Shown: positions 76-26,584, counted from the first letter of the stretch. The stretch: DNA of 31,521 bases from a virus (IMGVR_UViG_3300011335_000460:1-31521); one strand, 5' to 3'. The notes: generated by a model not told the origin, from the letters alone. Made by a program: numbers and translations.

Positions 76-1287
76 ATGTCTGAAGACGCCAAGAAGTTTC
101 GTGCCATCATGAAGGCAAAGGCAATCGCCCGAGCCAAGCCCCAGACCGGCAAGGTTGACGCTTCCAGCTTCACGCCTGCCGAGCCACTGGACGCTGACGT
201 TCAGACCGGAATGCGCCCGGTATCCCGCCGCGCGTTCAAGTCTGGCGGCAAGGTCGCTGGCGAGGCGTGTGCGCCGAACATGGGCCGTCAGCCCCGCAAG
301 TCTGGCGGCAAGACTGAAGCGGTCGAGATTGCGAACGCCAAGGTCAATCGCAACGTGAAGGACGCCAACGAAGAACGCGAAGGCATCAAGCACGTCGGCG
401 GCATGAAGAAGGGCGGCGTCATCAAGAAGGAATCCGGTGGCTTCACTGACCCGCGCGCTGCGGCTGCCGCGCGCATGTCTGAGGCTGGCGCTAGATCTGG
501 CGTGCCGGTTGGCCGGATGGATTTCTCCGGCATCAAGAAGGGCGCGCTGTCTCCGCTGCGCGGCATGAAGAAGGGCGGCAAGGCCGTTTCCGGCAAGGCT
601 CCGGGCGGCGACTACGGCAGCACCGTTAACGCAGTCCGTGAAGACGCCGCGCCTCTGCCTCCCCGTCGCCCGGTTGAGTTGAGCACCGTTCCTCTGCCTC
701 CCCGTCGCCCGGTTGAGTTGAGCACCGTTCCTCTGCCTCCCCGTCGCCCGGTTGAATTGGGCGGCAAGGAGCCGGACGCAGACGATCTTTACGATGCAGC
801 CGACGCCGCGCGCCTAGAGCGCGGTTACAAGAAGGGCGGCAAGGCCAAGGCGCATGAAGACGTGGCAATGGACAAGGCGCTCATCAAGAAGATGGTGAAG
901 CCTGCGGCCCGCACTGAGAAAGAAGATGGCGGTCGCCTTGCCCGCAAGGCCGGTGGTCGCGCCAAGGGCAAGACGAACATCAACATCATTATCGGCACCG
1001 GCAAGTCGCCGGACGATGGGTCGCAGCAGGCGGCCATGATGGGCGCTCCCCCGCCGATGAACATTCCGGTTCCGGCTCCCATGCCTGCCGGTATGCCACC
1101 CATGCCTGCCGGTGGCCCGCCGCCCATGCCAATGCCGCCGATGCCCGCTGGCCCGCCTCCCGGTATGCCGCCTATGGGCCGCAAGTCTGGCGGTCGCACT
1201 TACCCGAAGATGCACTACGGCGCTGGTAGCGGCCTCGGTCGCATCGAGAAGGTCAACAAGTACGGTCTTACTCCCATCAAGGGCTGA
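76..1287 (+). CDS. Lys/Gly/Pro-rich low-complexity protein with ~10 x-x-x-GG motifs; putative internal head protein
   Basis: ATG with AGGAG at 63-67. Motifs FKSGG, RKSGG x2, MKKGG x2, YKKGG, RKAGG, KESGG, KEDGG, KAPGG; Pro/Met-rich tail; lies upstream of the scaffold/capsid genes. Function is inferred. Confidence 0.8.
   Translation: MSEDAKKFRAIMKAKAIARAKPQTGKVDASSFTPAEPLDADVQTGMRPVSRRAFKSGGKVAGEACAPNMGRQPRKSGGKTEAVEIANAKVNRNVKDANEEREGIKHVGGMKKGGVIKKESGGFTDPRAAAAARMSEAGARSGVPVGRMDFSGIKKGALSPLRGMKKGGKAVSGKAPGGDYGSTVNAVREDAAPLPPRRPVELSTVPLPPRRPVELSTVPLPPRRPVELGGKEPDADDLYDAADAARLERGYKKGGKAKAHEDVAMDKALIKKMVKPAARTEKEDGGRLARKAGGRAKGKTNINIIIGTGKSPDDGSQQAAMMGAPPPMNIPVPAPMPAGMPPMPAGGPPPMPMPPMPAGPPPGMPPMGRKSGGRTYPKMHYGAGSGLGRIEKVNKYGLTPIKG
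652..759 (+). repeat. 39-bp in-frame tandem repeat (~2.8 copies) encoding PLPPRRPVELSTV
   Basis: Units start at 652, 691 and 730 and are essentially identical. Confidence 0.97.
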
Positions 1288-1289
1288 AA

Positions 1290-1402
1290 GTTTCTGCCGC
1301 GACTGGTACGCGCGGCAGGAAACAAAGGAGGCGGGTGGTCCTCTCCCGCCCGTCTCCTAGTAAACCCGAGAGGAAAAACACCACATTTGAGAGGATGTGT
1401 GG
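1290..1402 (+). promoter_or_regulatory. Structured intergenic RNA: tandem hairpins with a possible pseudoknot or kissing loop
   Basis: Stem 1290-1301/1311-1323; 13-bp stem 1326-1338/1346-1358 with loop TCCTCTC; exact complement GAGAGGA at 1368-1374 and 1389-1395. Confidence 0.6.
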
Positions 1403-1406
1403 AACT

Positions 1407-1619
1407 ATGCAGACTTTCCAAACTGTTTATGAAGCAGAGCTTCGTAAATTAATCGCAGTCGAAGTAGAGAGATTGAAAGAAAATCTGTCTCACGGCCAAA
1501 GCGTCTGCGATTATTCGGAATACCAAAAAACTGTTGGCCAGATACTAGGTCTTCGCACGGCTTTAGAGCTTTGCGAAGAAGCAAATGCGTTGAGTGAGCG
1601 TAAAGAGCGTAACATCTAG
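1407..1619 (+). CDS. Small helical phage protein (70 aa) upstream of the GroES-like gene
   Basis: MQTFQTVYEAELRKL...DYSEYQKTVGQILGL. ATG 1407 is preferred to the track start at 1335, which lies inside a hairpin. Confidence 0.75.
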   Translation: MQTFQTVYEAELRKLIAVEVERLKENLSHGQSVCDYSEYQKTVGQILGLRTALELCEEANALSERKERNI

Positions 1620-1636
1620 CAGAGAGAGGACTGACG

Positions 1637-2029
1637 ATGCCTTTTATGACTATGGAACATCTCGAAGAACCTAAGAAGAAGATTCTCGACGAGATCAAAG
1701 ACGTGTCTCAAGTAGAAATCTTCAACAATCAGATCCTTGTGGCGATCTATATTCGCCCATCGAAGACCAAATCCGGCATTTACCTGTCCGATAAGACGAC
1801 AGATGAAGACCGTTACCAGTCGAAAGTCGGTCTAGTGTTGAAAAAGGGCGCGCAGGCGTTCGTTGATGACACGAATACTTGGTTTTCTGACGTTGAAGTC
1901 AACGAAAACGACTGGATTCTGTTCAAACCGTCCGATGGATGGTCGATTACTGTCAATAACGTCCTTTGCCGCATTCTTGACGACACGGCTGTCAAGGGTC
2001 GCGTCGATCAACCCGACCGTGTGTGGTGA
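1637..2029 (+). CDS. GroES/Cpn10-like co-chaperonin
   Basis: NQILV...KTKSGIYL mobile-loop motif, then VGLVLKKG, VNENDWILF, CRILDDTAVKGRV; RBS GAGAGGA at 1624-1630. Confidence 0.85.
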   Translation: MPFMTMEHLEEPKKKILDEIKDVSQVEIFNNQILVAIYIRPSKTKSGIYLSDKTTDEDRYQSKVGLVLKKGAQAFVDDTNTWFSDVEVNENDWILFKPSDGWSITVNNVLCRILDDTAVKGRVDQPDRVW

Positions 2030-2916
2030 TGAGCATGGCAAACAAGGAAAAGATCGAAGACATCGACATCGATGTAACGGAAAAGCCGGTGAAAGACGAG
2101 GAAATCGTCGTCGCAAAGGCTGAAGAGCTAAATGACGCTGATTCTCCACAGCAGGCTATCGAAGACATCAAGCGGCAGCTTGATACGGAGAAAGCCGCCC
2201 GTGCTGATGCAGAACGCCGGGCGCAGGACGCCGCACAACAGGCTTATCATGCCCGTAACGAGGTGGATGACACCAATCTACACCTTGTTAACAGCGCGAT
2301 TGAAACTGTAAAACGCAATAATGACATCCTGAAAGCAAATTATCGGGAGGCCATGATTGTAGGTGACTACGATAAGGCTGCCGAAGTTCAGGAAATTATG
2401 TCCAGCAACCAGGCCAAGCTGCTTCAGCTTGAAAATGGCCGCCGGGACATGGAAGTTCGGCCCAAACAAGCTCCTCCCCGTCCGGCAGACGAGATTGAGG
2501 CGCTTGCTGTTCAGGTAACGCCTGCATCGGCAAATTGGTTGCGTAACAATCGTCAGCATTTGTCGGATAGTCGCGCCGTCCGCAAGATGTTCCGCGCCCA
2601 TGAAGACGCTGTTGACGAAAACATTACCCCGGATACTCGCGAATACTTCCAGTTCATCGAGGGTCGTCTCGGAATTGGCCGCGACACCTATATTGCGCCG
2701 GAAATAGACGCAATGGCGGAAACCGCGAAGGTCACGCAGAGGCGTTCTGCTCCCCCGTCCGCCCCTGTCAGCCGATCCGGGTCTGCGCCGGGATCACGTC
2801 CCAATGTCGTCCGCCTGAGCAACGCTGAGCGCGAAATGGCGAACATGATGGGCATGACCGACATGGAATACGCCAAGAATAAGCAAGCACTCCAGAAGGA
2901 AGGTAAACTCCAGTGA
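2029..2916 (+). CDS. Putative capsid scaffolding protein
   Basis: Acidic N-terminus, long coiled coil, Pro/Ser linker and a C-terminal helix hairpin (VRLSNAEREMANMMGMTDMEYAK); TGATG coupling to the previous gene; upstream of the capsid genes. Confidence 0.7.
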   Translation: MSMANKEKIEDIDIDVTEKPVKDEEIVVAKAEELNDADSPQQAIEDIKRQLDTEKAARADAERRAQDAAQQAYHARNEVDDTNLHLVNSAIETVKRNNDILKANYREAMIVGDYDKAAEVQEIMSSNQAKLLQLENGRRDMEVRPKQAPPRPADEIEALAVQVTPASANWLRNNRQHLSDSRAVRKMFRAHEDAVDENITPDTREYFQFIEGRLGIGRDTYIAPEIDAMAETAKVTQRRSAPPSAPVSRSGSAPGSRPNVVRLSNAEREMANMMGMTDMEYAKNKQALQKEGKLQ

Positions 2917-3560
2917 CTGAACTTTCTATTACTCCCCGCCGCCGTGGCCGCCCCAGCCGCCTTGACGCAGCCTTGAAGACGATTGACGCTACGGAAGCCG
3001 CTGAAGCTGCCGCCGTTGAGGTTCATGAGGAATCTGATCCGGCTCCGGCGTCACCGTCCATTGATCGCCGTGATTTGCGCCCGTCTCTGCGGGGCGATGA
3101 TCCCCGCGCCCGTGCCGCTGCCCGTGCCGCCGAAGTCCGTAATAACATGGGCGACATGGACGAGGGAACGGACGATTTCTACGTCGATCCGAAGGTCATC
3201 CCTGCGGGCTGGGGCTACGAATGGAAGCGCAAGACGGTATTCGGGCAGGAAGACCCGGCCTATCAGGTGCAGCTTGCCCGCACCGGCTGGGAGCCTGTCG
3301 CGGCTGACCGCCATCCAAACATGATGCCGACTACGGGGTCGCACAAAACCATCGAGCGCAAGGGCATGATCCTGATGGAGCGGCCCCTGGAGCTGACGGA
3401 GGAGGCGCGCAATATCGAAAAGCGCCGCGCCCGCCAGCAGATTATTGCCAAGAAAGAGCAGCTTGGCGAGAACAAAGCCGGTGAATTCGAGCGCAATCAT
3501 GCTCAGGTTCGGCCCAAGATCAGCAATAGCTACGAGCCATTGCCGGTCCCGAAAGACTAA
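2913..3560 (+). CDS. Head-module hypothetical protein
   Basis: GTGA overlap with the scaffold stop; globular core IPAGWGYEWKR...GWEPV...GMILMERP. Confidence 0.8.
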   Translation: MTELSITPRRRGRPSRLDAALKTIDATEAAEAAAVEVHEESDPAPASPSIDRRDLRPSLRGDDPRARAAARAAEVRNNMGDMDEGTDDFYVDPKVIPAGWGYEWKRKTVFGQEDPAYQVQLARTGWEPVAADRHPNMMPTTGSHKTIERKGMILMERPLELTEEARNIEKRRARQQIIAKKEQLGENKAGEFERNHAQVRPKISNSYEPLPVPKD

Positions 3561-3564
3561 TACT

Positions 3565-3589
3565 GTGGCGGGGCTAATAACCCCGCCGC
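3565..3589 (+). terminator. GC-rich hairpin, possible weak terminator or processing site
   Basis: GTGGCGGGG-ctaataa-CCCCGCCGC directly after the stop codon; no U-tract. Confidence 0.45.
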
Positions 3590-3597
3590 CCCTATAG

Positions 3598-3627
3598 TTG
3601 ACAAATGGATTATTTATAAAGTATTCT
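3598..3627 (+). promoter_or_regulatory. Sigma70-type promoter for the capsid genes
   Basis: TTGACA (3598-3603), 18-nt spacer, TATTCT (3622-3627) in an AT-rich intergenic stretch. Confidence 0.6.
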
Positions 3628-3723
3628 ATAAATGCTCTCCCGGTGATGAGCTTAATTTAGTCCCTGTCTCTGAGTCGCCCCGGCGCGCGATGATGGACTT
3701 TCCCGTAAAAAGGAGAACCCGTC

Positions 3724-4308: not shown

Positions 4309-4322
4309 GGGAGTAGGCTACT

Positions 4323-5237
4323 ATGGCTGTCAATCTTTCAGCAATTAAAGACCTTCTCCTGCCCGGTCTAAGGGGCATTGAAGGCAAGTACGAGATGATC
4401 CCATCTCAGTACGACAAGATCTTCACCAAGCACGATTCGAAGCTCGCGCTCGAACGTACTGCTGAAATGCGTTACTTGGGCCTCGCCCAGCTCAAGACCG
4501 AAGGCGGCCAGACCGCTTTCGACAACTCGGCTGGCGAACGCTACGTCTACAACCAGGAACACACCGAAATCGCTCTCGGGTATGCGATTACTCGCAAGGC
4601 GATTGACGATAACCTGTACAAGACACAGTTTGCTCCGTCGAACCTCGGCCTGATCGAATCCTTTCAGCAGACCAAGGAAATCTACGGCGCGAACATCCTG
4701 AACACCGCGACGACCTACAATGCGGCGTTCGGCGGCGACGGCAAGGCGCTTTGTGCAACCGATCATCCGATTGATGGTGGAACGGTAGCCAACCGCACCA
4801 CGACTGACGTTGATTTGAGTGAATCCACTCTGCTCAACGGCATGATCGCCGTGCGTACCAACTTCAAGGATCAGGCTGGCCTCAAGGTCTTCGCCCGCGC
4901 CCGCAAGCTGGTTATCGCCCCGCAGAACGAGCCGGTTGCCATCCGCCTGACGAAGACGGAACTGCGTCCCGGCACGGCAGACAACGACGTTAATGCGATC
5001 ATGACAACCGCCGGGGGTCTCCCGGAGGGCTACATGACCAACGACTTCCTTACGTCGGCGTTCCCGTGGTTCCTGCTTACGAACATTGACGGTCTCTCCT
5101 ACATGGAGCGCGTCAAGTTCGAATCCGACATGCAGGTCGATTTCGTCACCGATAACCTGCTGGTTAAAGGGTACGAGCGGTATAGCTTCGGCTACTACAA
5201 CTTCCGTTCAATCTATGGAAGTTTTCCGACTTCGTAA
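4323..5237 (+). CDS. Major capsid protein (HK97 fold, Mu gpT-like family)
   Basis: 304 aa; KDLLLPGL, KTEGG, ALGYAITRKAIDDNLY, GGDGKALCATDHP, WFLLT, YERYSFGY...YGS; strong codon bias. Confidence 0.88.
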   Translation: MAVNLSAIKDLLLPGLRGIEGKYEMIPSQYDKIFTKHDSKLALERTAEMRYLGLAQLKTEGGQTAFDNSAGERYVYNQEHTEIALGYAITRKAIDDNLYKTQFAPSNLGLIESFQQTKEIYGANILNTATTYNAAFGGDGKALCATDHPIDGGTVANRTTTDVDLSESTLLNGMIAVRTNFKDQAGLKVFARARKLVIAPQNEPVAIRLTKTELRPGTADNDVNAIMTTAGGLPEGYMTNDFLTSAFPWFLLTNIDGLSYMERVKFESDMQVDFVTDNLLVKGYERYSFGYYNFRSIYGSFPTS

Positions 5238-5244
5238 TCGGCAC

Positions 5245-5270
5245 AGCCTCGCTCTTAACAGGGCGAGGCT
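5245..5270 (+). terminator. Hairpin after the major capsid gene (partial terminator or mRNA stabiliser)
   Basis: 11-bp stem AGCCTCGCTCT-taac-AGGGCGAGGCT; short U-tract. Confidence 0.55.
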
Positions 5271-5292
5271 TCAACACTGAAGGAATTCTCTT

Positions 5293-5748: not shown

Positions 5749-5759
5749 GGAACAACGCC

Positions 5760-6014
5760 ATGAAGGGCACCGCTCCGAATACGGGTAAAATGAAGCTCTC
5801 GGCTTACGCTGGCGGCGACAGTGAAGTTGCAAAGGAATCGCGCACCGGCAATGACGGCTTCAAGCGCGGCGGCAAGGCCAAGAAGAATGTTGGCGATGTC
5901 TCCGGCATGATGTCGAGCGCAAACGCTGGCCGCAAGCCCCGCAAGGCTGGTGGTGGCGTATTCTCGTCTGCGTCTGGTCCGGGCACTCCCCGCAAGTCCA
6001 GCTCGCCTTACTAA
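5760..6014 (+). CDS. Small basic protein (84 aa) with three GG motifs
   Basis: ATG 5760 after AAGGAA; AYAGG, FKRGG, RKAGG. Confidence 0.75.
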   Translation: MKGTAPNTGKMKLSAYAGGDSEVAKESRTGNDGFKRGGKAKKNVGDVSGMMSSANAGRKPRKAGGGVFSSASGPGTPRKSSSPY

Positions 6015-6060: not shown

Positions 6061-6092
6061 TTCTCAAAATATCAAAAGCGGGATAGCCAACA

Positions 6093-8198: not shown

Positions 8199-10819
8199 GT
8201 TCCATCCAAATCCCAAATCTTACCGCTGCCGTTTCTGTCACGGGATCTGAACAGCTTGAGGCTGTGCAGTCGGGATCGTCTGTCCGCGTGACGGCTGCCC
8301 AGATCGCTTCATTGTCCCCATCTGGTACTGTTACGAGCGTCAACGCATCCGGCGGCACGACCGGGATGTCGTTTACCGGCGGCCCGATTACTTCATCCGG
8401 CACATTGACGCTGGCCGGAACGCTGGTTGCCGTCAACGGCGGAACCGGGCAGTCATCGTATAGCATTGGCGATATTCTTTACGCGAGCAGCTCGACTGCT
8501 TTGTCTAAACTGGCCGACGTAGCCACTGGCAATGCGTTGATTTCGGGCGGAGTGACTACCGCCCCGGCGTGGGGGAAAATCGACCTTACTACGCATGTGA
8601 CCGGCATTCTGCCATCTGCCAATGGTGGAACTGGCGTTAACAACGGGTCAAGTACGATTACGTTGGGCGGGGATCTGACGACATCCGGTGCATTCAGCAC
8701 AACCCTTACATCAACCGCCGCCACTAGCGTCACTTTGCCCGTTTCAGGTAATCTTTTAAGTTCTGTTACGGCTGTGGCTGCGGTAACTGGCACACCATCG
8801 GCGTCCAATTATCTTCGTGGAGACGGGACGTGGGCTACCTTCACGACTGGCACCGTCACGAGCGTATCCGTCACAACGGCAAATGGTGTTTCTGGAACCG
8901 TGGCTACGGCAACGACGACACCTGCAATTAGTCTGACGCTTGGCGCTATCACGCCGACAACGGTTAACGGCATCACATTTACCGCAAACGCCACGGGTTT
9001 TTCTGCGGCGGCAGGCACTGGAACTTTCACGACCGCAGGTGCTTTTGCTCAAACCCACACTGTCACTGCCGCGACTAATGTTACATTTCCCGCCGGGATA
9101 ACAAATAACAATGTTATTTCGTCCGCCACTCAATTGGCAGCCAATCCCGTCACCGGAACGCCATCGGCGTCTACATATCTTCGCGGTGACGGGACGTGGG
9201 CAGCAGTAGCCGGTAGCGGCACCGTCACGAGCGTATCCGTCACAACGGCAAATGGTGTTTCTGGAACCGTGGCCACGGCAACCACGACACCTGCAATTAG
9301 TCTGACGCTCGGCGCTATCACGCCGACAACGGTTAACGGCATCACATTTACCGCAAACGCCACGGGGTTTTCTGCGGCAGGCGGGACTACATCCAAGACA
9401 TTGACTGTTAACAACACGTTAACCCTTGCGGGCACGGATAGCTCGACATTGAATATTGGAGCGGGCGGAACCCTTGGGTCACTGGCATTTTTGTCTCTTG
9501 CCACGGGTACGTATGGCGGAACCGGCGTTAATAACGGATCAAATACAATTACGTTAGGTGGAAACATTAGTACATCTGGCGCATTCACCGCCGCAGGTGC
9601 TTTTGCTCAAACCCACACTGTCACTGCTGCGACTAATGTTACATTTCCCGCCGGGATAACAAATAACAATGTTATTTCGTCCGCCACTCAATTGGCAAAC
9701 AATCCCGTCACCGGAACACCATCGGCGTCTAATTATCTTCGCGGTGACGGGACGTGGGCTACCTTCACGACCGGCACCGTCACGAGCGTTTCGTTCACTG
9801 GCGGCATTGTTTCTGTCGCTAACCCAACAACCACGCCTGCTCTTACGGTTGCGGGAACTTCAGGCGGAATACCTTATTTTAGCTCTGCCTCAACATGGGC
9901 GACATCAGCGGCTCTAGCGGCGAACGCTATTGTCATCGGAGGCGGGGCTGGGGCAACGCCCGCGACCACCACGACCGGGACAGGCGTATTAAGTGCCCTC
10001 GCGGTCAATACTGGCTCTGCCGGTGCGTTTGTGGTTAACGGCGGCGCGCTTGGCACCCCGTCGTCCGGCACCTTGACAAGCGCCACCGGATTGCCGCTGA
10101 CAACCGGCGTAACCGGAATACTACCTGTTGCGAATGGTGGAACGGCGACATCAACCGCGTTTACTGCCGGGTCCGTTGTTTTCGCAGGCGCGAGCGGCGT
10201 TTACACGCAAAACAACAGTAATTTGTTCTGGGACAACACGAACAGTTACCTTGGGATCGGGACTGCTACCCCGCTGGCTCCCATCACGATAACAAAGCAG
10301 ATTACGGCTCTATCTGGCGGAACTGCCGCCTACGGAATGTACCAATACGTTACTTCGTCCGGGGCGCAATACATCGATTGCGTCAACAATGGCGGAAATA
10401 GCGCATTTTTGAATATCAGGACGTACTCGGGCAGCGCGTATAATACGTTTACGTTCGGCACTACCGGGGCCGCAATTCAGGGTAATAACTCGTCTACGTG
10501 GACGGTAGTTTCAGACATACAGATCAAGCAGAACGTAAGGTCTATCGGGTCTCCGTTGACTAAGATCAACGCCCTGAAACCCTGCCACTACGAATACAAA
10601 AACGCGCCGGATGAGATTAGGACCGGGTTTATCGCCCAAGAGTTTGAAAAGGTATTTCCCGGTCACGTTAGCGAAACCGATCCGCCAGACGAATTTAAGA
10701 AGTTCGTCCCGGATGGAGAGAAAATCAAATCTCTGGACGCGAATATCGTCCCGTATCTGGTTGCGGCTATCCAAGAACTCACGACACGACTTGAAGCAAT
10801 TGAAGGTAAACGCCCATGA
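8195..10819 (+). CDS. Tail fibre with C-terminal peptidase S74 intramolecular chaperone
   Basis: Thr/Gly-rich; NGGTG and YLRGDGTW fibre repeats; C-terminal SDIQIKQNV...GFIAQE...coiled coil. Confidence 0.9.
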   Translation: MSSIQIPNLTAAVSVTGSEQLEAVQSGSSVRVTAAQIASLSPSGTVTSVNASGGTTGMSFTGGPITSSGTLTLAGTLVAVNGGTGQSSYSIGDILYASSSTALSKLADVATGNALISGGVTTAPAWGKIDLTTHVTGILPSANGGTGVNNGSSTITLGGDLTTSGAFSTTLTSTAATSVTLPVSGNLLSSVTAVAAVTGTPSASNYLRGDGTWATFTTGTVTSVSVTTANGVSGTVATATTTPAISLTLGAITPTTVNGITFTANATGFSAAAGTGTFTTAGAFAQTHTVTAATNVTFPAGITNNNVISSATQLAANPVTGTPSASTYLRGDGTWAAVAGSGTVTSVSVTTANGVSGTVATATTTPAISLTLGAITPTTVNGITFTANATGFSAAGGTTSKTLTVNNTLTLAGTDSSTLNIGAGGTLGSLAFLSLATGTYGGTGVNNGSNTITLGGNISTSGAFTAAGAFAQTHTVTAATNVTFPAGITNNNVISSATQLANNPVTGTPSASNYLRGDGTWATFTTGTVTSVSFTGGIVSVANPTTTPALTVAGTSGGIPYFSSASTWATSAALAANAIVIGGGAGATPATTTTGTGVLSALAVNTGSAGAFVVNGGALGTPSSGTLTSATGLPLTTGVTGILPVANGGTATSTAFTAGSVVFAGASGVYTQNNSNLFWDNTNSYLGIGTATPLAPITITKQITALSGGTAAYGMYQYVTSSGAQYIDCVNNGGNSAFLNIRTYSGSAYNTFTFGTTGAAIQGNNSSTWTVVSDIQIKQNVRSIGSPLTKINALKPCHYEYKNAPDEIRTGFIAQEFEKVFPGHVSETDPPDEFKKFVPDGEKIKSLDANIVPYLVAAIQELTTRLEAIEGKRP
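8849..9759 (+). repeat. Interleaved internal duplications A-B-A-B in the fibre gene
   Basis: A: 8849-9009 and 9218-9378 (161 bp). B: 9033-9201 and 9591-9759 (169 bp). Near-identical DNA with in-frame offsets of 369 and 558. Confidence 0.93.
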
Positions 10820-11865
10820 CCGTAACCACAAATCAAGGGCTGAACCTTCCGGCTGCTGGCGATTCGAACTGGAACACGCCCCTAAACGCTAACTTTTCGA
10901 TCATGGATAAGGCGTTCGGCGGCAATCAGGAAATCAGCGTTACGGGCGCAACAACCACGCCTATCGTTCTGACGCTGACCCAATACCAGAACATGCTCAT
11001 TACGTTCACCGGGATACTGACGGCTAACGTCACGTATCAAATCCCTGCCGGGATCGGCGGGTGCTGGATATTCAATAACGCTGCCAGTGGGGCGTACACT
11101 CTCACAGTAGGAACGTCAACGGCTGGCGTGACGCAGGTGGTGTTGCAGGACATTCCGGTTACTTTGTATGCCGATGGAACGAACATCATTCCAGCCGGGC
11201 CGGACCTTTCTTCTGGCGGCACCATCACGGGAAATTTGGCTATTTCCGGGTCGTTAACCGCGACTGGAACGATAACATCGACAGGCAGCATAAACGCCCC
11301 TAATTTCCTTATTACCACAAATTCCGCAGTAATTGGTTACGCCAATTCAGACGCATCTATCTATGTTTATAACGCAACAGGGTCCGGCGGCAATACAAAA
11401 ACAATAGCATTAAATACAGACAATACAGAGCGCCTTAGAGTAACGAGCGCGGGTAATATAGGTATTGGAACGTCAACCCCCTCCGCAAAACTTGAGGTAA
11501 ATGGCTCAATTCTTATCGGTAACGCCGTTGCATATTATGGGAAGAATACTGGCGGAGCGTCTAGAATTATTTCTTATATTAGCAATTCAAACGATTTTAT
11601 ATTTGGCGACCCAAACCAAGCGGGTTCTATACGTTTTTACAACAACGGGATAAACTCTGCGACCATCAACTTAGATGGAAACCTTACGGTCGGCACAACA
11701 GCTCCATCAGGTATTTACAACAAGATTGGCGGCGATGGGTTCTTGTGCCGCAACGGAACAGGTGGGTCGTATAGTGGGGATTCTTTCAATATTCAGTTTG
11801 ACGGATCATCTAAAGCGTACCTGTGGATTAACGGGACGAAACTTGGCCAAATTTACGTCTTTTAA
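10816..11865 (+). CDS. Second tail fibre/spike
   Basis: N-terminal anchor (NWNTPLNANFSIMDKAFGG); TERLRVTSAGNIGIGTSTPSAKLEVNG fibre repeat; ATGA overlap. Confidence 0.8.
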   Translation: MTVTTNQGLNLPAAGDSNWNTPLNANFSIMDKAFGGNQEISVTGATTTPIVLTLTQYQNMLITFTGILTANVTYQIPAGIGGCWIFNNAASGAYTLTVGTSTAGVTQVVLQDIPVTLYADGTNIIPAGPDLSSGGTITGNLAISGSLTATGTITSTGSINAPNFLITTNSAVIGYANSDASIYVYNATGSGGNTKTIALNTDNTERLRVTSAGNIGIGTSTPSAKLEVNGSILIGNAVAYYGKNTGGASRIISYISNSNDFIFGDPNQAGSIRFYNNGINSATINLDGNLTVGTTAPSGIYNKIGGDGFLCRNGTGGSYSGDSFNIQFDGSSKAYLWINGTKLGQIYVF

Positions 11866-17998: not shown

Positions 17999-18601
17999 AT
18001 GCCATTAGCCCACGGGAAATCTCAAAAAACCATCAGTTCAAATATTTCGGAAATGGTCGCTTCCGGCCATCCCCAGAAGCAGGCGATTGCTGCGGCGCTG
18101 AATACCGCCCGGCACACAAAAGCATTCGGCGGCAGTCATATGCCGCGCCCGCCGAAGATGGGCGGGACCAAGCTCCACACCGGCCCGATCCATAGCCGCG
18201 TTGCTGGCCGTACCGACCATCTGCCCATGCACGTCCCGTCGGGGTCTTATGTCATCCCTGCCGACATTATCTCGGCAATGGGCGAGGGCAACACGATGGC
18301 CGGGTTTACGCACATGAAGCGGATATTCGGCGGCGTTCCGTATGGCGGCGCTGGCGCTCCGTATGGCGCGTCCGGTGGCCCTTACGGTTCCTCAATGCCT
18401 CGCAAGGCCGAAGGCGGCGACGTTTCCGGCGTCCCTATCGTGGCGGCAGGTGGCGAATACGTCTTGACGCCAGATGAGGTTGTTTGGGCTGGCGACGGCG
18501 ATCTTGAGACCGGCCACAAGGTTCTTGACGACTTTGTTAAGCAGACACGCGCGCAGACTGTGCAGACACTCAAAGCCCTCCCCGGCCCAAAGAAAGATTA
18601 A
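17999..18601 (+). CDS. Protein with an N-terminal MPLxxGKSQKTIS module and two GG...G[SE]YV modules
   Basis: ATG 17999 after GAGGA; KAFGG...GRTDHLPMHVPSGSYVIPADII and KAEGG...VPIVAAGGEYVLTPDEV. Confidence 0.8.
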   Translation: MPLAHGKSQKTISSNISEMVASGHPQKQAIAAALNTARHTKAFGGSHMPRPPKMGGTKLHTGPIHSRVAGRTDHLPMHVPSGSYVIPADIISAMGEGNTMAGFTHMKRIFGGVPYGGAGAPYGASGGPYGSSMPRKAEGGDVSGVPIVAAGGEYVLTPDEVVWAGDGDLETGHKVLDDFVKQTRAQTVQTLKALPGPKKD

Positions 18602-18602
18602 C

Positions 18603-19093: not shown

Positions 19094-19861
19094 GTGGGTG
19101 GTCTTTTCTACGTTTACGAGCACTGGCGTCCTGATCGGGACACTTGTTTCTATGTGGGCAAGGGGAAGGGTCGCCGGGCTAATGATATGAAGCGGGGCCG
19201 TAACCGTTTTCATAAGTTTATCCAAGATAAATTATCAAGGATGAGCCTACTTGTTGAAGTTCGCATAGTTCAGGGCGAATTGGATGAGGAATCCGCATTT
19301 TCACTTGAAAAAAAACGTATCGCATTTTGGAAAAATAGCGGCGTCGATATTGCTAATCCAACTTCTGGCGGCGAAGGTCCGTCCGGCATGATCGTGTCAG
19401 AAGAAACTCGTCGAAAACACAGCATATCTTCGACCGGCAGAAAATTGTCTGAAAATGCAAAAAAAGCTATTTCGGTATCCGCAATAGGTAATACTCGTGG
19501 ATTGGGCAAAAAGAGGCCAATCGAAGCGATTGAGGCTACTAGGAAAGCTAATATTGGAAAGAAACGTAGCGAAGAAACCAAACTTAAATTGAGAATTATC
19601 CGTATAAATAACCCGACATTTGCGGGCAAGCACCATACTGAGGATACGATTGAAAAGATTAGCGCACCGCAACGTGGCAGGCCAAAATCTGAAGAGACAA
19701 AAGCGCGTATGCGTAAGCCAAAAAGTGAAGAACATAAATTGAAACTTTCACTTGCGAATATTGGTAAAACTCATTCGCCTGAAACACTGAAAAAGATATC
19801 AGAAAACTCCCGCCAACAGTGGGCAAAGCGTAAGTCTCTTTCACTTATGCAGAAGGAATAG
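19094..19861 (+). mobile_element. Free-standing GIY-YIG homing endonuclease with NUMOD3-type repeats
   Basis: FYVYEH...FYVGKG...R...LE...N-x3-GGEG; repeats SEETRRK, SEETKLK, SEETKAR, SEEHKLK, SPETLKK; visibly AT-richer than its flanks. Confidence 0.88.
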
Positions 19862-19865
19862 CACC

Positions 19866-22800
19866 GTGGGCGGTAAGACTAGCCAAAGCACAAGTTCCGT
19901 TTCAATCCCCCCCGAGGTTTTGGCGCGATATAATGCCGTAAATCTCAGGGCAGAAGACACCGCAAAACAAGGGTTTCAGCAGTATTCCAGCGACCCGAAC
20001 GCATTTGTCGCTCCCCTGACGGCTGGGCAGCAGGCAGGTGTTGCCAATACAAATCAATACGCCAATGCGGCGCAGCCTTATTACGGTGCGGCGGCTGGTA
20101 TGACGGCGGCAGGCGCTGGCCCAATTAACGCGGGCGAGCTAAACACGCAGAAATATATGAACCCGTTCACCAAGAACGTGGCTGATACGACGCAGCAGGC
20201 TCTACAGCAGCAGCAAGAGCAGGCCATGTCTGGCCAGACCGGCAACGCCATCCGTTCCGGTGCGTTCGGCGGCGACCGTTCTGGCATTGCGGCGGCTGTC
20301 GCGCAGCGTCAGAACCAGCAGGGCATGGCTCAGGCTATCGCGCCGATCTACGAGCGCGGGTATTCGCAGGCGCAACAGACGGCTGCACAGCAGCAGGGCG
20401 TCGGCCTTGGGGCAGAACAGGCTAACGCGGCGCGCTACATGCAGGCGGGGCAGCAATTGGCTGGCCTTGGCTCGGCAGCGCAGACGGCTGGCCTACAGGG
20501 CGCACAGGCGCAGTTGGCGGCGGGCAAAGAGCAGCAGCAGACCGAACAGGCCGGTAAGACGGCCATGTACAACCAGTTTCTTCAGCAGCAGGGCTACCCG
20601 TTCCAGGTTGCACAGTTCCTTGCGAATATCGCAATGGGCACGGGCGCATTGTCTGGATCGACGACCACCACGACGCAGCCGCAATCGTTCTTTTCTGACC
20701 GCCGCCTGAAGCACGACATTCGCAAGATTGGCGAGACGGACGACGGGCAGCCGATTTACAAATTCAAGTATAAGGGCGACCCGAAAGAGCAGACGCACAT
20801 TGGCCTGATGGCTCAGGAAGTCGAAAAGAAGCATCCAGAGGCTGTCGGCCTGTCTGGCGGATACAAGACAGTTGACTACGACAAGGCAACGCGCTTTGCG
20901 GAGGGCGGCCTTGTGCCGTCCAGCATGGGCGGTGCTGTCGATGAAGGCATGGCTTACGAGGGCTTTGCTGAAGGCGGAATGCCGTCCTTGAGCATCTTCG
21001 GTATGCCGGGCGGCGGATTGTCTGGGTATATCCCCGGCGAAGTCTTCAAAAACAATATGTCGCCGTCGGATCTTCAGAAAATGCAGTCCGGTTTCATGGC
21101 TCGCGGCGCTGGCCCGAGTTCAAAAACAGGCCTTGGCGCAGCGGCGACTGGTCTCAATGAGATCATGAGTGCTGAAAAATCCCTGGAAAGCGCCTATAAA
21201 ATGGGTTCCAGTGGGGTTGATTGGTTGAAGTCAAAGACCGCCGCCCGTGGCGGCGTTATGGGCTACGCTGGCGGCGGAATGCCGTATGGCGACGACGATA
21301 CTGACAGTACCGACATTCTCGGCGATGTCGTCAAGCAAGGTCAGCAGCAGCACGCATCGCTGCCGAAGCCCGGCGAGGCACCGAAAGCCCCACAGAGCGG
21401 CATCGGGCAGTTGGCGCAGGGTGTTGGCGCACTGAATAGCGGGATGAAAGCCGCGCAGGGTCTATATACGGGCGCTGGAAAACTTGGATCAATGATTTCC
21501 GGCCTTGGCTCGGCGGCTGAAGGCGCAGGCGCTGCGGCTGGCGCTGCTGAGGGGCTTGGGGCTGCGGCTGGCGCTGCCGGAACATTGGGCTCCATCGGAT
21601 CTGGATTGGCGGCGGCAGGATCGACGGCGGCTGAATTGCTGCCGTTCTTGATGATGCTCTCCGACGAGCGCGCGAAGCACGACAAGAAGAAGGTTGGCGA
21701 GCTTTATGATGGCCAGCCGGTCTATAGCTACAAATACAACGGCGACAACCGCACCCAGCTCGGCCTGATGGCGCAGAATGTTGAGCGGAGCCATCCCGAG
21801 GCCGTCGGATCAATGCACGGCATGAAGATGGTTGACTACGACAGGGCAACGTCAGACGCGGCTGATCGTGGGCATTTCTACAGCGGCGGCCTTGTGCCGC
21901 GACATGGGTATCAAGAAGGTGGACCGCCCGCAGATTATAGCTTTGAAGCTGACCTTCCGGCAGAAGGCGCGCAGGAGGTCGCATTTAGAGGCGATGCCGA
22001 TACTAAAAACAGAATCCGGGAAGGAATTATCTCTGCGGCCAATGAGCGTGGTATTGACCCGGTTCACCTCGCTACTGCGATATCCTATGAAACAGGCGGA
22101 ACTTTTGATCCTACCCAAGCTGGGCCGAGGACCAAATGGGGTCGACATCGCGGGCTTATTCAGTTTGGAGAACCGCAGGCCGAAAAATACAAAGTTGATT
22201 GGAATAACCCCGTAGAAACCCAGCTCGGTCCTGACGGAGCTGTCTCAAGGTATTTGGCCGATACCGGCGTCAAACCCGGCATGGGCTTGAAAGACATTTA
22301 CTCGGCCATTAATGCGGGCGGTGTCGGTCGTTACGGAGCGAGAGACGCCCAGCAAGGCGGCGCACCCGGAACCGTGGCCGATAAGGTCGAACAGCAGATG
22401 GGCGGACATCGCACAAATGCTATGAATCTACTTGGTGAGGACGGCACGCAAGGCGATACAAATGTTCCTGCGGCACGTGCCAGATCTTCTGGCGTCTCCC
22501 CGTCCGGCACATCTGCTCGAACTGAAGCGGAACCATCTGCACTTGGCGGCCTTGGTTCGGCAATGGGTGGTATAGGCGACTGGTTCAGTGAGAACAAAGG
22601 TATCATTCTTCCCGTCCTCTCCGGCCTTGGGAAAATGGCGTCTTCGCCCAGCCGTTACCTTGGATCGGCTATCCTTCAGGGTCTGGGCGGCGGTGCCGAA
22701 GCCTATTCCAGTCTCCAGAAAGAGCAGAGTGAAATCGCCAAGAATACGCTTGGCCTGGCTCAGGGAATGTTTGTTCCGGTTGATATTGGCCCATACAAAA

Positions 22801-24104
22801 ATCAATTCTACAACACGACAACTAACCAGTATTACACTTCGGCTCAGAAAAATGCAGCTATTGCAGGGTTGCTCAAAGCGTCGGGCGTTCCGCCGTCCAT
22901 GTACGCTGCACTTCTTTCTCCGTCTGCTGGGGTTGGTTCTAAAGCATCGGTTCCGCAGGCTTCGGACTCTACGGGAGAAGGACGTACGTCTACACAACAG
23001 GACTTGCCCGCACCCACTGATACAGGCGCTACATCAAGCGAAGCTCCTTCTATAAGCCAACCTGCGGCCCCTGCTGCTGGGGCAGCCGCTCCGGCGGCAG
23101 TCGTTACAAAACCGCCGGTTGACGAAGTCGAAACCGGCATTGTTCAACCGATTCCAATTCCATCGCAAAGATACAAAAACGCTCAAGAGGAGTATAATCC
23201 CGCTTTCCTTTCACAAAGAATACAAAGAAACGAAGCGGCTAAACTTTCTGCTCAAAGTCGTGGTGACTCTGCTAAGGCTGCGACGTTTGACGCACAAATC
23301 AAAACTGATTCGGACAAAATAAAAGGAATAAAAGACGGAAGTATTCCCGTCATGGACAATAACGGAAATCAGATTATTATTCCTGAGATTGAAAGAAACA
23401 AAGCTATTTCTAAGTCAAACGAGGCCATACCTACGCGCGTTGATGCGTTTAATAAGGAAGTTCTAGGATCTCAAGAGCAGGTTATAATTCAGAGGCAGCT
23501 TAATGAAATGTTGAATAAAGCATACACTTCAACCGACCTTGGTCCTGGGTCTGATTTTCAACAAAAATTGTATAACATTGCATCCAATGTGCCGGGAGTT
23601 CGTAATTTTCTGGAAAAATACGACACCGCCGGTAAATGGAATCTTGCTGTAAAGAGTTCGGATTATGCGCTAGCTGAGAAAGCCGCTATTACGGAGGCTA
23701 TTACGGCCATTCGTGAAGCTCAGGCTCAACGCGCGCCCGGCACCACTTTGAAATTTACCATGCAAACTGTTCCGGCGGCCAACTTGTCGGCTGGCGCGCG
23801 GTATGAACTCATTGCAAAAAATAATGGGAACATAGACAGGCAGGAGAAACTCAATAACGATTGGTTGGATACGATTAAGAAAGGTCAATATCCTGATCCA
23901 AACCTGTTTGTGAGAGCGTGGAAATTGAAGCCTGAAAACGATCCAAAAGTATTTATTGAAAAAGCCAAACAGAACACGCCCGCTTACGCTGGTATGACCG
24001 AGGGTGAAAAAGCACAATACGGACCAAAAGATCCTGTACACAGAGCAATATTTATGAACCCTCAGATTCTTATGGATGAGCTTAAACGCCGTGGGGCTCA
24101 GTAA
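19866..24104 (+). CDS. Large ejection (DNA transfer) protein with two internal peptidase S74 domains and a lysozyme-like domain
   Basis: Gln/Ala-rich N-terminus (YMNPF, GAFGGDR); SDRRLK at nt 20694 and SDERAK at nt 21660, each with GLMAQ...VDYD; transglycosylase-like AISYETGGTFDP...GLIQF at ~22010-22430. Confidence 0.85.
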   Translation: MGGKTSQSTSSVSIPPEVLARYNAVNLRAEDTAKQGFQQYSSDPNAFVAPLTAGQQAGVANTNQYANAAQPYYGAAAGMTAAGAGPINAGELNTQKYMNPFTKNVADTTQQALQQQQEQAMSGQTGNAIRSGAFGGDRSGIAAAVAQRQNQQGMAQAIAPIYERGYSQAQQTAAQQQGVGLGAEQANAARYMQAGQQLAGLGSAAQTAGLQGAQAQLAAGKEQQQTEQAGKTAMYNQFLQQQGYPFQVAQFLANIAMGTGALSGSTTTTTQPQSFFSDRRLKHDIRKIGETDDGQPIYKFKYKGDPKEQTHIGLMAQEVEKKHPEAVGLSGGYKTVDYDKATRFAEGGLVPSSMGGAVDEGMAYEGFAEGGMPSLSIFGMPGGGLSGYIPGEVFKNNMSPSDLQKMQSGFMARGAGPSSKTGLGAAATGLNEIMSAEKSLESAYKMGSSGVDWLKSKTAARGGVMGYAGGGMPYGDDDTDSTDILGDVVKQGQQQHASLPKPGEAPKAPQSGIGQLAQGVGALNSGMKAAQGLYTGAGKLGSMISGLGSAAEGAGAAAGAAEGLGAAAGAAGTLGSIGSGLAAAGSTAAELLPFLMMLSDERAKHDKKKVGELYDGQPVYSYKYNGDNRTQLGLMAQNVERSHPEAVGSMHGMKMVDYDRATSDAADRGHFYSGGLVPRHGYQEGGPPADYSFEADLPAEGAQEVAFRGDADTKNRIREGIISAANERGIDPVHLATAISYETGGTFDPTQAGPRTKWGRHRGLIQFGEPQAEKYKVDWNNPVETQLGPDGAVSRYLADTGVKPGMGLKDIYSAINAGGVGRYGARDAQQGGAPGTVADKVEQQMGGHRTNAMNLLGEDGTQGDTNVPAARARSSGVSPSGTSARTEAEPSALGGLGSAMGGIGDWFSENKGIILPVLSGLGKMASSPSRYLGSAILQGLGGGAEAYSSLQKEQSEIAKNTLGLAQGMFVPVDIGPYKNQFYNTTTNQYYTSAQKNAAIAGLLKASGVPPSMYAALLSPSAGVGSKASVPQASDSTGEGRTSTQQDLPAPTDTGATSSEAPSISQPAAPAAGAAAPAAVVTKPPVDEVETGIVQPIPIPSQRYKNAQEEYNPAFLSQRIQRNEAAKLSAQSRGDSAKAATFDAQIKTDSDKIKGIKDGSIPVMDNNGNQIIIPEIERNKAISKSNEAIPTRVDAFNKEVLGSQEQVIIQRQLNEMLNKAYTSTDLGPGSDFQQKLYNIASNVPGVRNFLEKYDTAGKWNLAVKSSDYALAEKAAITEAITAIREAQAQRAPGTTLKFTMQTVPAANLSAGARYELIAKNNGNIDRQEKLNNDWLDTIKKGQYPDPNLFVRAWKLKPENDPKVFIEKAKQNTPAYAGMTEGEKAQYGPKDPVHRAIFMNPQILMDELKRRGAQ

Positions 24105-26584
24105 TGGCAGGTAACTTAGATCTATCTTCCATTCCAACTGACGTTCTTAAGGCGTATGCGTCTAAACTTGGCGCTGCGCCGACTGCTGCGCCGACAACCA
24201 AGTCAAATGTCGATCTGAGTTCAATATCGACTGAAGAATTGCAGAAATATGCTGATAGCATGGGCATCAATACGGGGGGTGCCGAAACACCCCCCACCAA
24301 AACCGTAACCGCGCAAAACTTTACCACGCCTGAGCAGGACATGGAGGCCCGTGCGGCTAAGTTCCGCCCCGAGGCGGCAAAAGCTATAGCGGGGCAATCT
24401 GCGTTAAGAACAATGGTTCCGATGGGCGCAGACATTCCTGTTTTTGGGCCACTGGTTCAACGTGGAATTGCAAAATACAAATCTACCGGCACGGAAGATC
24501 AGGGTAAATACGGCTCCACGCCAGAAGAACGGTACAGAAACATACTGGCCGAGAACAAGGCGTATGAGACCGAACGCAACGTACAGAACCCCAACCTGAG
24601 CTGGGTTCCGAGTATTGCTGGCGGCATTGCGTCTGCTGCTGCAGTCCCATTGGCGTTAGCGGCATTACCGGCGGCTCCTGCAGGCGCTGCGGGTGTCGGC
24701 GGAACATTGGCGGCGTTACGTGCGGCGAGTGCTGCTCGGCCAATTGCATCGGCAATTGGTAGCGGCATAGGGTGGGGCGCAGCGTCTACCGCTGCCGAAA
24801 CTCTGCCCGGAGAAAGCGCAGAAGACTACGCCCTACGGATTGGTACAGGCGCAGCAATAGGCGCTCCGCTTGGTTTTGCCGGTTACGGAGTCAGTAAGGC
24901 AATTGTCGGGGCTGGTAAGGGTGTAGCCAACGCATCGAGTTTATTGTTCAACCCTGAACAACACGCCATCGGCAAGATGGCGGCTGCTGAAGCCGCAGCT
25001 CCCGTGGCGTCTAAAGGATTGTCGTCGGCAGAAGCCGCCGCGTTAAGGGATGCGGGTGCTCCAGTTGTAGCCACAGACATCAGAGGTGTAACGCCTGCTG
25101 TCCAGAAAGCCGCCAATCGGCTTCCAGAAAATGAGAATATTGCAAAAATAAACGACTCGCTGCTGGCTCGAACACAGGAAAGCAGCGTCAAATTTCAATC
25201 GATGATTGATGACGCACACGCAGTCAAAGTCGGCAACCCAGCCGCCGTAATAGACCCCGTCGCGTCAAGAGCTGCCGCTGATGCAGAAGCGCGGCTCGTT
25301 AACAAACCGGCCTACGACGCCGCATATGCCGCACCCGCAGCTCAAAACATCTGGAATTCAAACCTAGAAAATCTGATTAATACTAAACATGGCCAAAGTG
25401 CAATTGACTGGGCAGTGACTAATTCTAACGCACATGCGTATGACACTAAATCTATACCTATTCGAAACCCGTTTGTTAAAAATTCCAAAACTGGACTCTA
25501 CGAATTTCCTATTGGTGCGCCGCCGCCGTCACTACAGTTCTGGGATTGGGTTAAACGCGGATTAAACGGTGCGACAAGCGTAGCGAGGAACAAAGGGGAT
25601 AACGATAGCGCGAGGGTTATTGCTAATAACGCACGAAGCCTTACTGATGATTTGAAAACTACAGTTCCAGAATACGGCACTGCATTGCAGGGCGCGCAAC
25701 GCTATATAAAGGAAGACAACGCCTTTGACGCGGGGATGAAGTTCTTTACTCTTGCGGATGCGTCAAAGAAAACGGACCCGATGGTCTTGGGTAAGCAGTT
25801 GGATTTCTTCAAAAACCCCAACCCACAGAAGCAGTACACGACCGGGGAGAAAGCGGGCTTTAATGAAGGCCTGCTGTCCTTCTTGAAATCAAATCCTGAA
25901 CAAGCCGCAAAGGTGTTTGCCAAGAACGACGCTGCAACAATGAATAATCTTCAGTCCGTCATGGACCCGCAGGTATTCAAAGCGGTGCAGACGGCCTCTC
26001 AGGTTCAGCGCATTTCGGCTTTGGCAAAGACAATCGTCCCACCGGCAGAGCCCTCCCGTCTAAAGGGCGTCTTGCAGGGCGGCATAGGCGCAACTGTTCT
26101 GGTCGGTATTTATAATCACATACCAGAAATCATAGCTCATATGAGTAACCCGGCATCTCTTATTGGAACCGGCTTATTGGCCGGTACTGGCCTTGCAACA
26201 AGATCCGCCTACAACGGAATACAAAACCGAAATGCGCGTATTCTTTTAGAAATGGCAACATCAAACGATCCGGCCATACTGAAGAAGGTTCAGGAAGCCG
26301 CTGCATCTAACGCCAATGTTCGAACAGCTTTGCATGAGCTGGAACAGGGGATGGCGCGTTATCTTGCTGCAAAGGGAACGACTTACTCAACTCCTCCCGA
26401 GGCTTCAAATTCTCGTATTCAACGCAAATCCGGCGGCAAGGTCGGCCACGCGCATCTTGTCAGCCGGTTGATGAAACTGGCGGAGCACGCCAAGAAAAGC
26501 TCGAATAAGGCTACCGAGCCTCTCTTGAATGCGTCAGACGATCACGTCGTCAGGGCTTTGGATGTAGCGCAGCGGGCTATCTAA
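24104..26584 (+). CDS. Second large putative ejection/internal virion protein
   Basis: TAATG coupling; Ala/Gly-rich hydrophobic segments; two N-terminal DLSSI repeats; RKSGG near the C-terminus; last gene of the operon. Confidence 0.75.
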   Translation: MAGNLDLSSIPTDVLKAYASKLGAAPTAAPTTKSNVDLSSISTEELQKYADSMGINTGGAETPPTKTVTAQNFTTPEQDMEARAAKFRPEAAKAIAGQSALRTMVPMGADIPVFGPLVQRGIAKYKSTGTEDQGKYGSTPEERYRNILAENKAYETERNVQNPNLSWVPSIAGGIASAAAVPLALAALPAAPAGAAGVGGTLAALRAASAARPIASAIGSGIGWGAASTAAETLPGESAEDYALRIGTGAAIGAPLGFAGYGVSKAIVGAGKGVANASSLLFNPEQHAIGKMAAAEAAAPVASKGLSSAEAAALRDAGAPVVATDIRGVTPAVQKAANRLPENENIAKINDSLLARTQESSVKFQSMIDDAHAVKVGNPAAVIDPVASRAAADAEARLVNKPAYDAAYAAPAAQNIWNSNLENLINTKHGQSAIDWAVTNSNAHAYDTKSIPIRNPFVKNSKTGLYEFPIGAPPPSLQFWDWVKRGLNGATSVARNKGDNDSARVIANNARSLTDDLKTTVPEYGTALQGAQRYIKEDNAFDAGMKFFTLADASKKTDPMVLGKQLDFFKNPNPQKQYTTGEKAGFNEGLLSFLKSNPEQAAKVFAKNDAATMNNLQSVMDPQVFKAVQTASQVQRISALAKTIVPPAEPSRLKGVLQGGIGATVLVGIYNHIPEIIAHMSNPASLIGTGLLAGTGLATRSAYNGIQNRNARILLEMATSNDPAILKKVQEAAASNANVRTALHELEQGMARYLAAKGTTYSTPPEASNSRIQRKSGGKVGHAHLVSRLMKLAEHAKKSSNKATEPLLNASDDHVVRALDVAQRAI

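Follow-up and report, generated by a model that had tools for sequence, protein, structure and literature searches.

A recurrent A/K-x-G-G peptide motif at the module joints of putative internal proteins in a HTVC023P-like podophage, and its possible role in virion maturation

The 31,521-nucleotide stretch of viral DNA analysed here (IMGVR_UViG_3300011335_000460:1-31521; hereafter, the window) is the structural module of a HTVC023P-like podophage—a short-tailed phage—and five of its predicted proteins share a short peptide motif, [R/K/Y/F/M]-[A/K]-x-G-G-x-[V/A/I]. This motif is enriched in the five proteins, is conserved at the level of the peptide, and avoids folded domains; it is common to the joints between modules of proteins that are otherwise unrelated. 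The five are encoded on the plus strand at positions 76–1287, 5760–6014, 17999–18601, 19866–24104, and 24104–26584 and are referred to below by the start of the open reading frame (ORF). Their place inside the virion is judged mostly from gene position, as only ORF 19866 receives the PHROG labels 'DNA ejection protein' and 'virion structural protein'. Because the motif matches one measured maturation cut, made in phage T5's tape measure protein, it may mark a cut made in packaged proteins during assembly, at P1↓A/K-x-G-G (where the arrow denotes the bond and P1 the residue before it); we give this reading about an even chance.

An earlier note on this DNA had counted about 20 copies of the motif in the five proteins, using the pattern [FYMRK][KAEYQ]xGG. 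Scanned over the 38 ORFs of the window, that pattern gives 23 matches against 4.74 in composition shuffles. Under a stricter null, in which GG was kept intact and residues were shuffled inside 30-residue blocks (3000 shuffles), the five proteins hold 22 matches against 5.24 expected, with a shuffle maximum of 14, and the claim of enrichment therefore stands. ORF 76, a basic, low-complexity protein of 403 residues (net charge +33) encoded ahead of the GroES, scaffold, and capsid genes, carries ten copies, beginning at nucleotides 235, 295, 403, 427, 565, 595, 826, 919, 943, and 1180 (p = 0.0003). ORF 5760, a small basic protein of 84 residues encoded two genes past the capsid gene, carries three, at 5859 and at the overlapping positions 5940 and 5943 (p = 0.006). 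The 1412-residue predicted ejection protein of ORF 19866 (PHROG 4287, DNA ejection protein, E 1e-20) has six (p = 0.013), at 20895, 20964, 21264, 21876, 21909, and 22086, the last of these, YETGG, being probably a chance match. The two copies in ORF 17999 (p = 0.13) and the single R↓KSGG at nucleotide 26423 in ORF 24104, the 826-residue protein adjoining the ejection gene (p = 0.41), are not significant alone. AARGG (nucleotide 21240), listed as a copy in the earlier note, and, in ORF 5760, AYAGG (YAGG, nucleotide 5802) fall outside that note's own pattern. Plain GG is not enriched in ORF 19866 (21 against 22.2) or in ORF 24104 (5 against 5.1); the signal sits in the residues preceding GG. No Pfam, PHROG, or NCBIfam family matches ORF 76, within which a 13-residue unit starting PLPPRRPVEL is repeated three times in tandem (652–768, plus strand).

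A held-out set of 2078 unique ORFs from 160 related loci was scanned; since these loci are related to one another, the counts show conservation and are not independent trials. The ORF 76 family holds 486 copies against 46.0 expected (127.5 under the strict null), in 46 of 46 proteins, with a median of 10 and a range of 3–15 per protein. Corresponding figures are 122 against 15.7 (33.5; 66 of 67 proteins) for the ORF 17999 family, 183 against 49.7 (90.7; 38 of 38) for the ORF 19866 family, and 32 against 12.6 (22.6; 24 of 30) for the ORF 24104 family, whilst ORF 5760-like proteins of 88–105 residues in related loci carry three or four copies. Position is also conserved in homologues, with a copy lying 51–63 residues from the C terminus in 26 of the 30 relatives of ORF 24104. 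The extended consensus reads R-x-[GAH]-[RKYFM]-[AK]-x-G-G-x-[VAI], so that conserved residues flank GG on both sides (R at −6, hydrophobic at +3). Across 155 copies, 15 different glycine codon pairs are used, which indicates that selection acts on the peptide.

The shell proteins lack the motif. No copy occurs in 21 major capsid, 42 scaffold-like, 58 GNAT, 36 GroES, or 36 adaptor proteins (one family) of the related loci; the major capsid protein of the window (4323–5237, plus strand; phrog_371) contains four GG and no copy. Nozzle proteins (73) hold 7 copies against 20.8 expected, at 598 GG sites, and 34 portals hold 5 against 6.9. The earlier claim that the motif is restricted to putative internal proteins is somewhat too strict: the only match outside the five proteins, a KAFGG overlooked in that note (10909–10923, plus strand), lies in the tail fibre encoded at 10816–11865, and the family of this fibre is a mild exception, with 15 copies against 6.3 (9.1 under the strict null). 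The window capsid protein shares 87.5% identity with its counterpart in the complete genome MW202675.1; identity to the capsid proteins of the cultured phages HTVC023P (a Pelagibacter phage, 39%), CRP-901, Pag-Yong1, and Caulobacter phage RW is 35–39%. Between the portal and the ORF 76 homologue, MW202675.1 encodes three large proteins, which have 6, 2, and 1 copies; in RW, there are 5 matches in 33 ORFs, one per protein.

Where the proteins contain recognisable domains, the copies stand beside them. The position of the motif relative to domains was assessed with a refined pattern, [FYMRKH][KA]xGG, in 15 proteins with Pfam hits, 12 of them relatives of ORF 17999 and three from MW202675.1. None of 63 copies lies inside a Pfam match, where chance would put 12.2 (p = 1e-4). 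Of 19 domains, 10 are preceded by a copy at a distance of no more than 30 residues (p = 2e-4); the motif thus fences modules. Twelve of the 41 long ORF 17999 relatives scanned have enzyme-like Pfam hits, such as ART-PolyVal, NUDIX, InPase, GNAT, and lysozyme, and ORF 40315 of MW202675.1 combines GNAT, M15, and ART-PolyVal. In the window itself, Pfam recognises only the peptidase S74 domains of ORF 19866—a type best known from tail spikes—as such modules. The first S74 chaperone domain (20694–20879, plus strand; PF13884) is followed a few residues downstream by F↓AEGG, and the second (21660–21839, plus strand; matched by Pfam in two stretches) by F↓YSGG and Y↓QEGG. Throughout the ORF 19866 family, 42 of 47 S74 domains have a copy within 37 residues downstream, and one copy lies inside a domain. 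The MW202675.1 homologue of ORF 19866 has one S74 domain plus an SLT transglycosylase. The earlier note had passed over the copies that follow both S74 domains, as well as the two further settings described next, namely a helical end-tag and the opening of a module.

Unrelated cargo proteins begin with the same helix, V/I-x-x-A-L-x-x-A-R/K. It is present in 67 of 67 relatives of ORF 17999 and 29 of 30 relatives of ORF 24104, against 3 of 73 nozzle proteins and none of the capsid, portal, scaffold-like, or ORF 76-family proteins. A looser version of this terminal helix occurs in 0 of 493 shell, tail, and other core proteins; in 270 motif-bearing proteins, it stands at the N-terminal end of 74 and the C-terminal end of 37, and the motif lies between helix and cargo in 47 and 32 of these, respectively. 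The helix pattern was, however, defined post hoc, and two families supply the majority of its hits, both points that count against a cut. In ORF 24104, R↓KSGG is followed by a 52-residue tail with a VxxALxxAQ helix (nucleotide 26546). A division of labour is suggested in which the helix would be an address and the motif a release site, as in T4, whose internal proteins bear a capsid targeting sequence processed by the prohead protease gp21. The window would share with T4 the logic of tagging internal proteins at an end, next to a place of processing (tag and site both being putative in the window); the two differ in that the window tags have another sequence and stand at either end, the sites also occur between internal modules, and no member of the prohead protease family was detected in the window or in the 40 of 81 MW202675.1 proteins scanned.

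ORF 17999 (plus strand) is a cargo-free carrier protein of 200 residues with an N-terminal helix pair, the motif, and two AxGG...G[SE]YV modules. The end-tag, a helix-turn-helix matching phrog_2423 (17999–18121), contains an IxxALxxAR helix (nucleotide 18086), with K↓AFGG (nucleotide 18119) directly after it. Module copy A (18167–18337) reads GPIHS...GRTD...GSYVIPAD plus two helices, and copy B (18398–18598) opens with K↓AEGG (nucleotide 18404). By hhalign, the two copies match each other with a probability of 95.5% and match the single-copy module described below with probabilities of 97.6% (A) and 95.3% (B). Five residues of copy B, G152, E153, P158, G172, and D177, are invariant across 113 sequences. 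The AlphaFold2 model (mean predicted local distance difference test score, pLDDT, 82.5) shows a strand-strand-helix-helix arrangement, twice. At 90% clustering, ORF 17999 has 3436 relatives, and its C-terminal part ends relatives of 116 to 1500 residues. Short matches to the phrog_2423 helix pair occur in phages of Burkholderia, Prochlorococcus, Pseudomonas, Acinetobacter, Vibrio, and Enterobacter.

In more distant phages, this module of about 50 residues occurs once and is usually headed by the motif, opening with YAEGG in Pag-Yong1, MARGG in RW, and mostly Y-x-x-G-G in 53 further sequences. A profile of the single-copy module recovers the tape measure of Douge (PDB 8zdo_S; E 0.0019, two copies) and those of MiniLon (1.6e-4) and Braxoaddie (4.7e-3), and also confirms HMO-2011 gp49 and proteins of HTVC023P and LKA5; among the 60 weak tblastn hits listed, of 199 records, 31 are annotated as tape measures. 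The motif is thus the first element of a module that is single in related podophage proteins and siphophage tape measures and doubled in ORF 17999. Since podophage internal proteins and tape measures have the module in common, the motif heads a module of proteins that leave via the tail. ORF 17999 is not itself part of a tape measure: the 200-residue protein belongs to a podophage-type module that also includes genes for SU10 adaptors and for ejection. In the tape measures of the mycobacteriophages MiniLon and Douge, the module occurs twice, about 450–500 residues apart and far from the C terminus, and these twin modules possibly fence a cargo region. The predicted C-proximal hook of JBD30 gp46 (residues 1022–1066, according to the relevant passage of PMC11445458) and that of Douge gp16 are the same module by profile and open with [FYR]-A-x-G-G; in the window, by contrast, a small podophage protein carries the module twice, and the opening element recurs in proteins unrelated to one another. 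Fold searches were uninformative, with no Foldseek match in the PDB at E ≤ 0.001, VIA-align Z scores of at most 5.6 (helix pair) and 3.0 (single module), and only uncharacterised phage proteins among the top BFVD matches; none revealed a catalytic fold. Nothing of use came from searching PDB sequences with three queries, namely the ORF 17999 profile, one single module, and the capsid protein.

A measured cut is available for T5. In tape measure protein pb2, the sequence F-V-P-R1127-A-E-G-G-M spans a maturation cut that the passage on pb2 in Linares et al. (PMC10038345) places after R1127. According to the section of PMC11937500 concerned, the cut was derived by liquid chromatography–electrospray ionisation–time-of-flight mass spectrometry (LC-ESI-TOF-MS) of undigested tails, which gave fragments of 121,683 and 9702 Da; translated pb2 1128–1219 has a mass of 9701.7 Da, against the 9702 Da measured. 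The cut bond in R↓A-E-G-G fits the window consensus, where K↓AEGG and F↓AEGG occur, and both systems concern ejected proteins. They differ in that T5 has one site in a tail protein, whereas up to 15 copies per protein occur in the predicted head cargo; the T5 papers, in the passages on the cut, name no motif. R-A-x-G-G is kept 84–93 residues from the end in five of six divergent T5-like and Roseobacter tape measures (35–43% identity), the sixth record having in-frame stops and reading differently. A tape measure region with several in-frame stops (table 11) and no annotated gene occurs in Aeromonas phage TS3 (OP820700.1, L417 151–540), which is consistent with stop-codon recoding or sequence errors. 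The tape measures of T5, lambda, and JBD88a have the same layout, that is, a hydrophobic stretch, A-x-G-G, and a GE..E/GE[FY]V element, 92–139 residues from the end. As no profile links the T5 module to that of the window, the connection to T5 rests on the motif and its position.

For lambda gpH, the rule would predict a cut at F733↓A734. Cleavage of gpH during tail assembly is reported in PMC12617516, a 2025 paper that, in the passage concerned, states both the site and the catalysis to be unknown. For JBD30 gp46, the pertinent section of PMC11445458 gives a cut at 1066 that had been guessed with a peptide-cutter program. Lambda gpI (L415 1374–2045) has A-K-S-G-G-V-F about 100 residues from its start, and its F-pyocin homologue loses an N-terminal part on assembly, according to part of bioRxiv 10.64898/2026.02.24.707460. 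A second mapped site was not found in the accessible portions of PMC10713586, PMC13033339, PMC12014285, PMC11972413, PMC11447400, PMC2248197, or that preprint.

The cargo protein C1 of crAss001, gp45, offers a further coincidence of register. Its portal-bound density is described as spanning residues 425–552 in the relevant part of PMC10172136, and residue 425 is the alanine of N424↓A-F-G-G, the same register as the T5 cut. Further copies of A/K-x-G-G in gp45 place GG at 209, 263, 332, 373, 562, and 828, in addition to 427. Like the predicted cargo of the window, gp45 is an internal protein with several copies; its resolved domain starts at the motif alanine and holds a GEVV element. That domain, PF25725, has no hidden Markov model (HMM) or hhalign match to the window module. 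The PF25725 HMM found no match in the window record, nor in 18 single-copy and two window stretches, and the family is not listed in the Foldseek or VIA-align searches (second model, pLDDT 63.9). The nearest named Atlas clusters to two module queries are nonetheless PF25725, at 0.82–0.85, which is a lead only. Four peptides are named in the text of PMC10172136 that was available; none spans a predicted bond, which neither supports nor refutes cutting. The string 'cleav' occurs 0 times in that text.

Were the motif a maturation site, the following scheme could be proposed. The lineage would have spread the motif, without the rest of the module, to all joints between modules in its cargo; the terminal amphipathic helix, V/I-x-x-A-L-x-x-A-R/K, would act as a loading address, and the adjoining motif would let the helix be trimmed. 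Cutting might then release the enzyme modules, along with S74 chaperones that have done their work, in fragments whose size permits exit through the tail, and it might reduce the basic products of ORFs 76 and 5760 to peptides of 1–8 kDa. From ORF 24104, such cuts would be predicted to yield pieces of 80.5 and 5.6 kDa, and from ORF 17999 pieces of 4.3, 9.7, and 6.6 kDa. The cutter could be the module with conserved acidic residues, either itself or as its recognition part—a guess that we consider fairly unlikely—or else a phage gene outside the fragment or a host protease. Such a mode would resemble both the maturation of the T5 tape measure and the trimming of T4 cargo, a likeness that does not establish membership in either. 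A broader proposal, to which we attach still less probability than to the module as cutter, is that a single rule, P1↓A/K-x-G-G, might serve ejected proteins across tailed phages, with cuts in T5 pb2, at F733↓A734 in lambda, at F1019↓A1020 in JBD30, and at N424↓A425 in crAss001. The part of catalyst or reader would fall to the AxGG...GE[FY]V module, which would act in cis within tape measures and in trans, as ORF 17999, in these podophages, splitting cargo polyproteins into separate injected enzymes and removing the helical loading tag.

Several observations weigh against a maturation cut. No cut has been observed in this phage or its close relatives. In T5, an earlier estimate by matrix-assisted laser desorption/ionisation (MALDI) put the cut at V1148±1 (PMC11937520, in the passage on pb2), and the second of two pattern matches in the 1219 residues of pb2, R138-ALGG, is uncut, as the large fragment keeps its full mass; the five-residue pattern is thus insufficient, and context matters. 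The lambda fragment of about 14 kDa (PMC12617516) fits a start at 716–720 (13.9–14.2 kDa) better than one at A734 (about 12.6 kDa). The start of the crAss001 density may be a domain edge only, and PMC10172136, in the part available, treats gp45 as continuous. Profile comparison gives little help: hhalign probabilities to the window module are about 2% or less for the T5-type module (a profile of five sequences) and likewise for the crAss-type module, three profile iterations built no bridge to either, and lambda gpH (hook, 733–790), compared as one sequence since a scan for relatives gave near-identical copies only, is borderline at 42–56%. The motif itself raises doubts as well. The range of P1 residues is wide for a single enzyme (R 180, K 108, Y 68, F 64, M 34, and L 29 among 579 sites), and copies a few residues from the C terminus, such as that within the last 8 residues of ORF 40315 of MW202675.1, make little sense as cuts; both AlphaFold models leave the motif unplaced on the module (pLDDT <50).

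A further point against a cut concerns the protease. In line with the earlier note, Pfam, PHROG, and NCBIfam recognise no prohead protease in the window, a record 54% complete, and these searches found no cysteine or JAB protease there either. In MW202675.1, no HK97/T4-type prohead protease is annotated, and the 40 of 81 proteins scanned include no protease beyond a SprT-like zincin (32571–33209), which lies just upstream of the terminase genes and is the sole stand-alone protease-like gene found in that genome. Among the 30 largest clusters of unassigned ORFs, in loci reaching 10 kb from their anchors, no widespread HExxH family was found.

The strongest alternative, though appreciably less probable than a cut, is that the motif is never cut and serves for docking or loading, as a short turn that would recruit tagged proteins to the prohead by attaching to the portal, to the inside of the capsid, or to the ORF 17999 module, and that would gain avidity from its many copies. 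It would account for the conserved positions on both sides of GG, for the median of 10 copies in ORF 76, which has little else to release, and for copies near termini; in crAss001, the domain opening with AFGG is bound to the portal, the PF25725 lead points the same way, and the lack of a protease in the window and the scanned part of MW202675.1 poses no difficulty for it. The T5 cut, however, falls exactly inside a conserved copy, the motif stands between cargo and a helical end-tag that is already separate from it, the AlphaFold models do not place it on the module, and PF25725 has no HMM match to that module.

Action at ejection, whether as an unfolding hinge or as a site that a protease of the host envelope or cytoplasm cuts after the protein's exit from the particle, appears improbable. 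The module is common to tail-passing proteins (tape measures and podophage internal proteins), copies fence enzyme modules, and no phage protease is evident, all of which such a role would fit; pb2, though, is already cut in purified tails, and gpH is cut during tail assembly, according to the T5 and lambda passages cited above.

The earlier note had offered a maturation site or a loading tag, which is the right pair of readings, and had likened the former to the sites of African swine fever virus (ASFV), adenovirus, and ubiquitin/SUMO, systems in which the cut falls directly after Gly-Gly. A GG that does not vary, preceded by a basic or a hydrophobic residue, does resemble such sites. A Gly-Gly↓X cut by a cysteine protease of these types is nevertheless very unlikely: the register is probably wrong, because the only measured cut at such a motif, T5 R1127↓AEGG, precedes the first glycine by two residues; neither the window nor the 40 scanned MW202675.1 proteins yielded a protease of these families; and Pfam finds no ubiquitin-like domain before the copies. 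Least probable of all is a functionless by-product of disordered Gly/Lys/Ala-rich sequence and local duplication, to which the low complexity and short tandem repeats of ORF 76 and the lack of significance of ORFs 17999 and 24104 alone would lend themselves, but which sits badly with the excess under the local GG-preserving null, the fixed position in relatives of ORF 24104, the synonymous codon variation, and the exclusion from domains.

The 31.5-kb record is a virus fragment. Its plus strand has genes for GroES, the major capsid protein, and a scaffold-like protein; for tail fibres, a nozzle-like protein, and two adaptors of the SU10 type; and for an endolysin, a GNAT, a homing endonuclease, and the two large proteins of ejection type (Pfam, PHROG); the labels 'scaffold-like' and 'nozzle-like' were assigned from gene position and size. 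The homing endonuclease gene (NUMOD3; 19094–19861, plus strand) lies between the GNAT gene and the first ejection gene, which in MW202675.1 adjoin with no such gene between them. On the minus strand, 26595–27098 encodes a phage homologue of the cell-cycle regulator GcrA (PF07750, E 1e-8), suggesting an alphaproteobacterial host, and 30636–31520 encodes a DUF6745 protein that runs off the end of the window and opens with a run of short repeats rich in Ala and Thr.

For polyvalent phage proteins, proteolytic processing is expected and built-in zincin MPTase domains have been proposed (Iyer et al. 2017, PMC5512222, in the passages concerned). Relatives of the window proteins similarly string together ART-PolyVal, InPase, NUDIX, GNAT, M15, and lysozyme modules; in contrast to the reading of the motif given here, the main text of that paper, so far as available, contains neither 'glycine' nor 'linker'. 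In literature coverage that left out most subscription papers, neither a description of the motif nor virion proteomics of HTVC023P-type phages was found. A shared site rule gives exact and cheap predictions for T5, lambda, JBD30, and crAss001 and for the cultured relatives Pag-Yong1, HTVC023P, and RW, and it could account for the detection of crAss001 gp45 segments 420 Å apart, in head and tail. Such a rule would also permit sequence-based annotation of cargo proteins and of their module limits across a large aquatic phage group.

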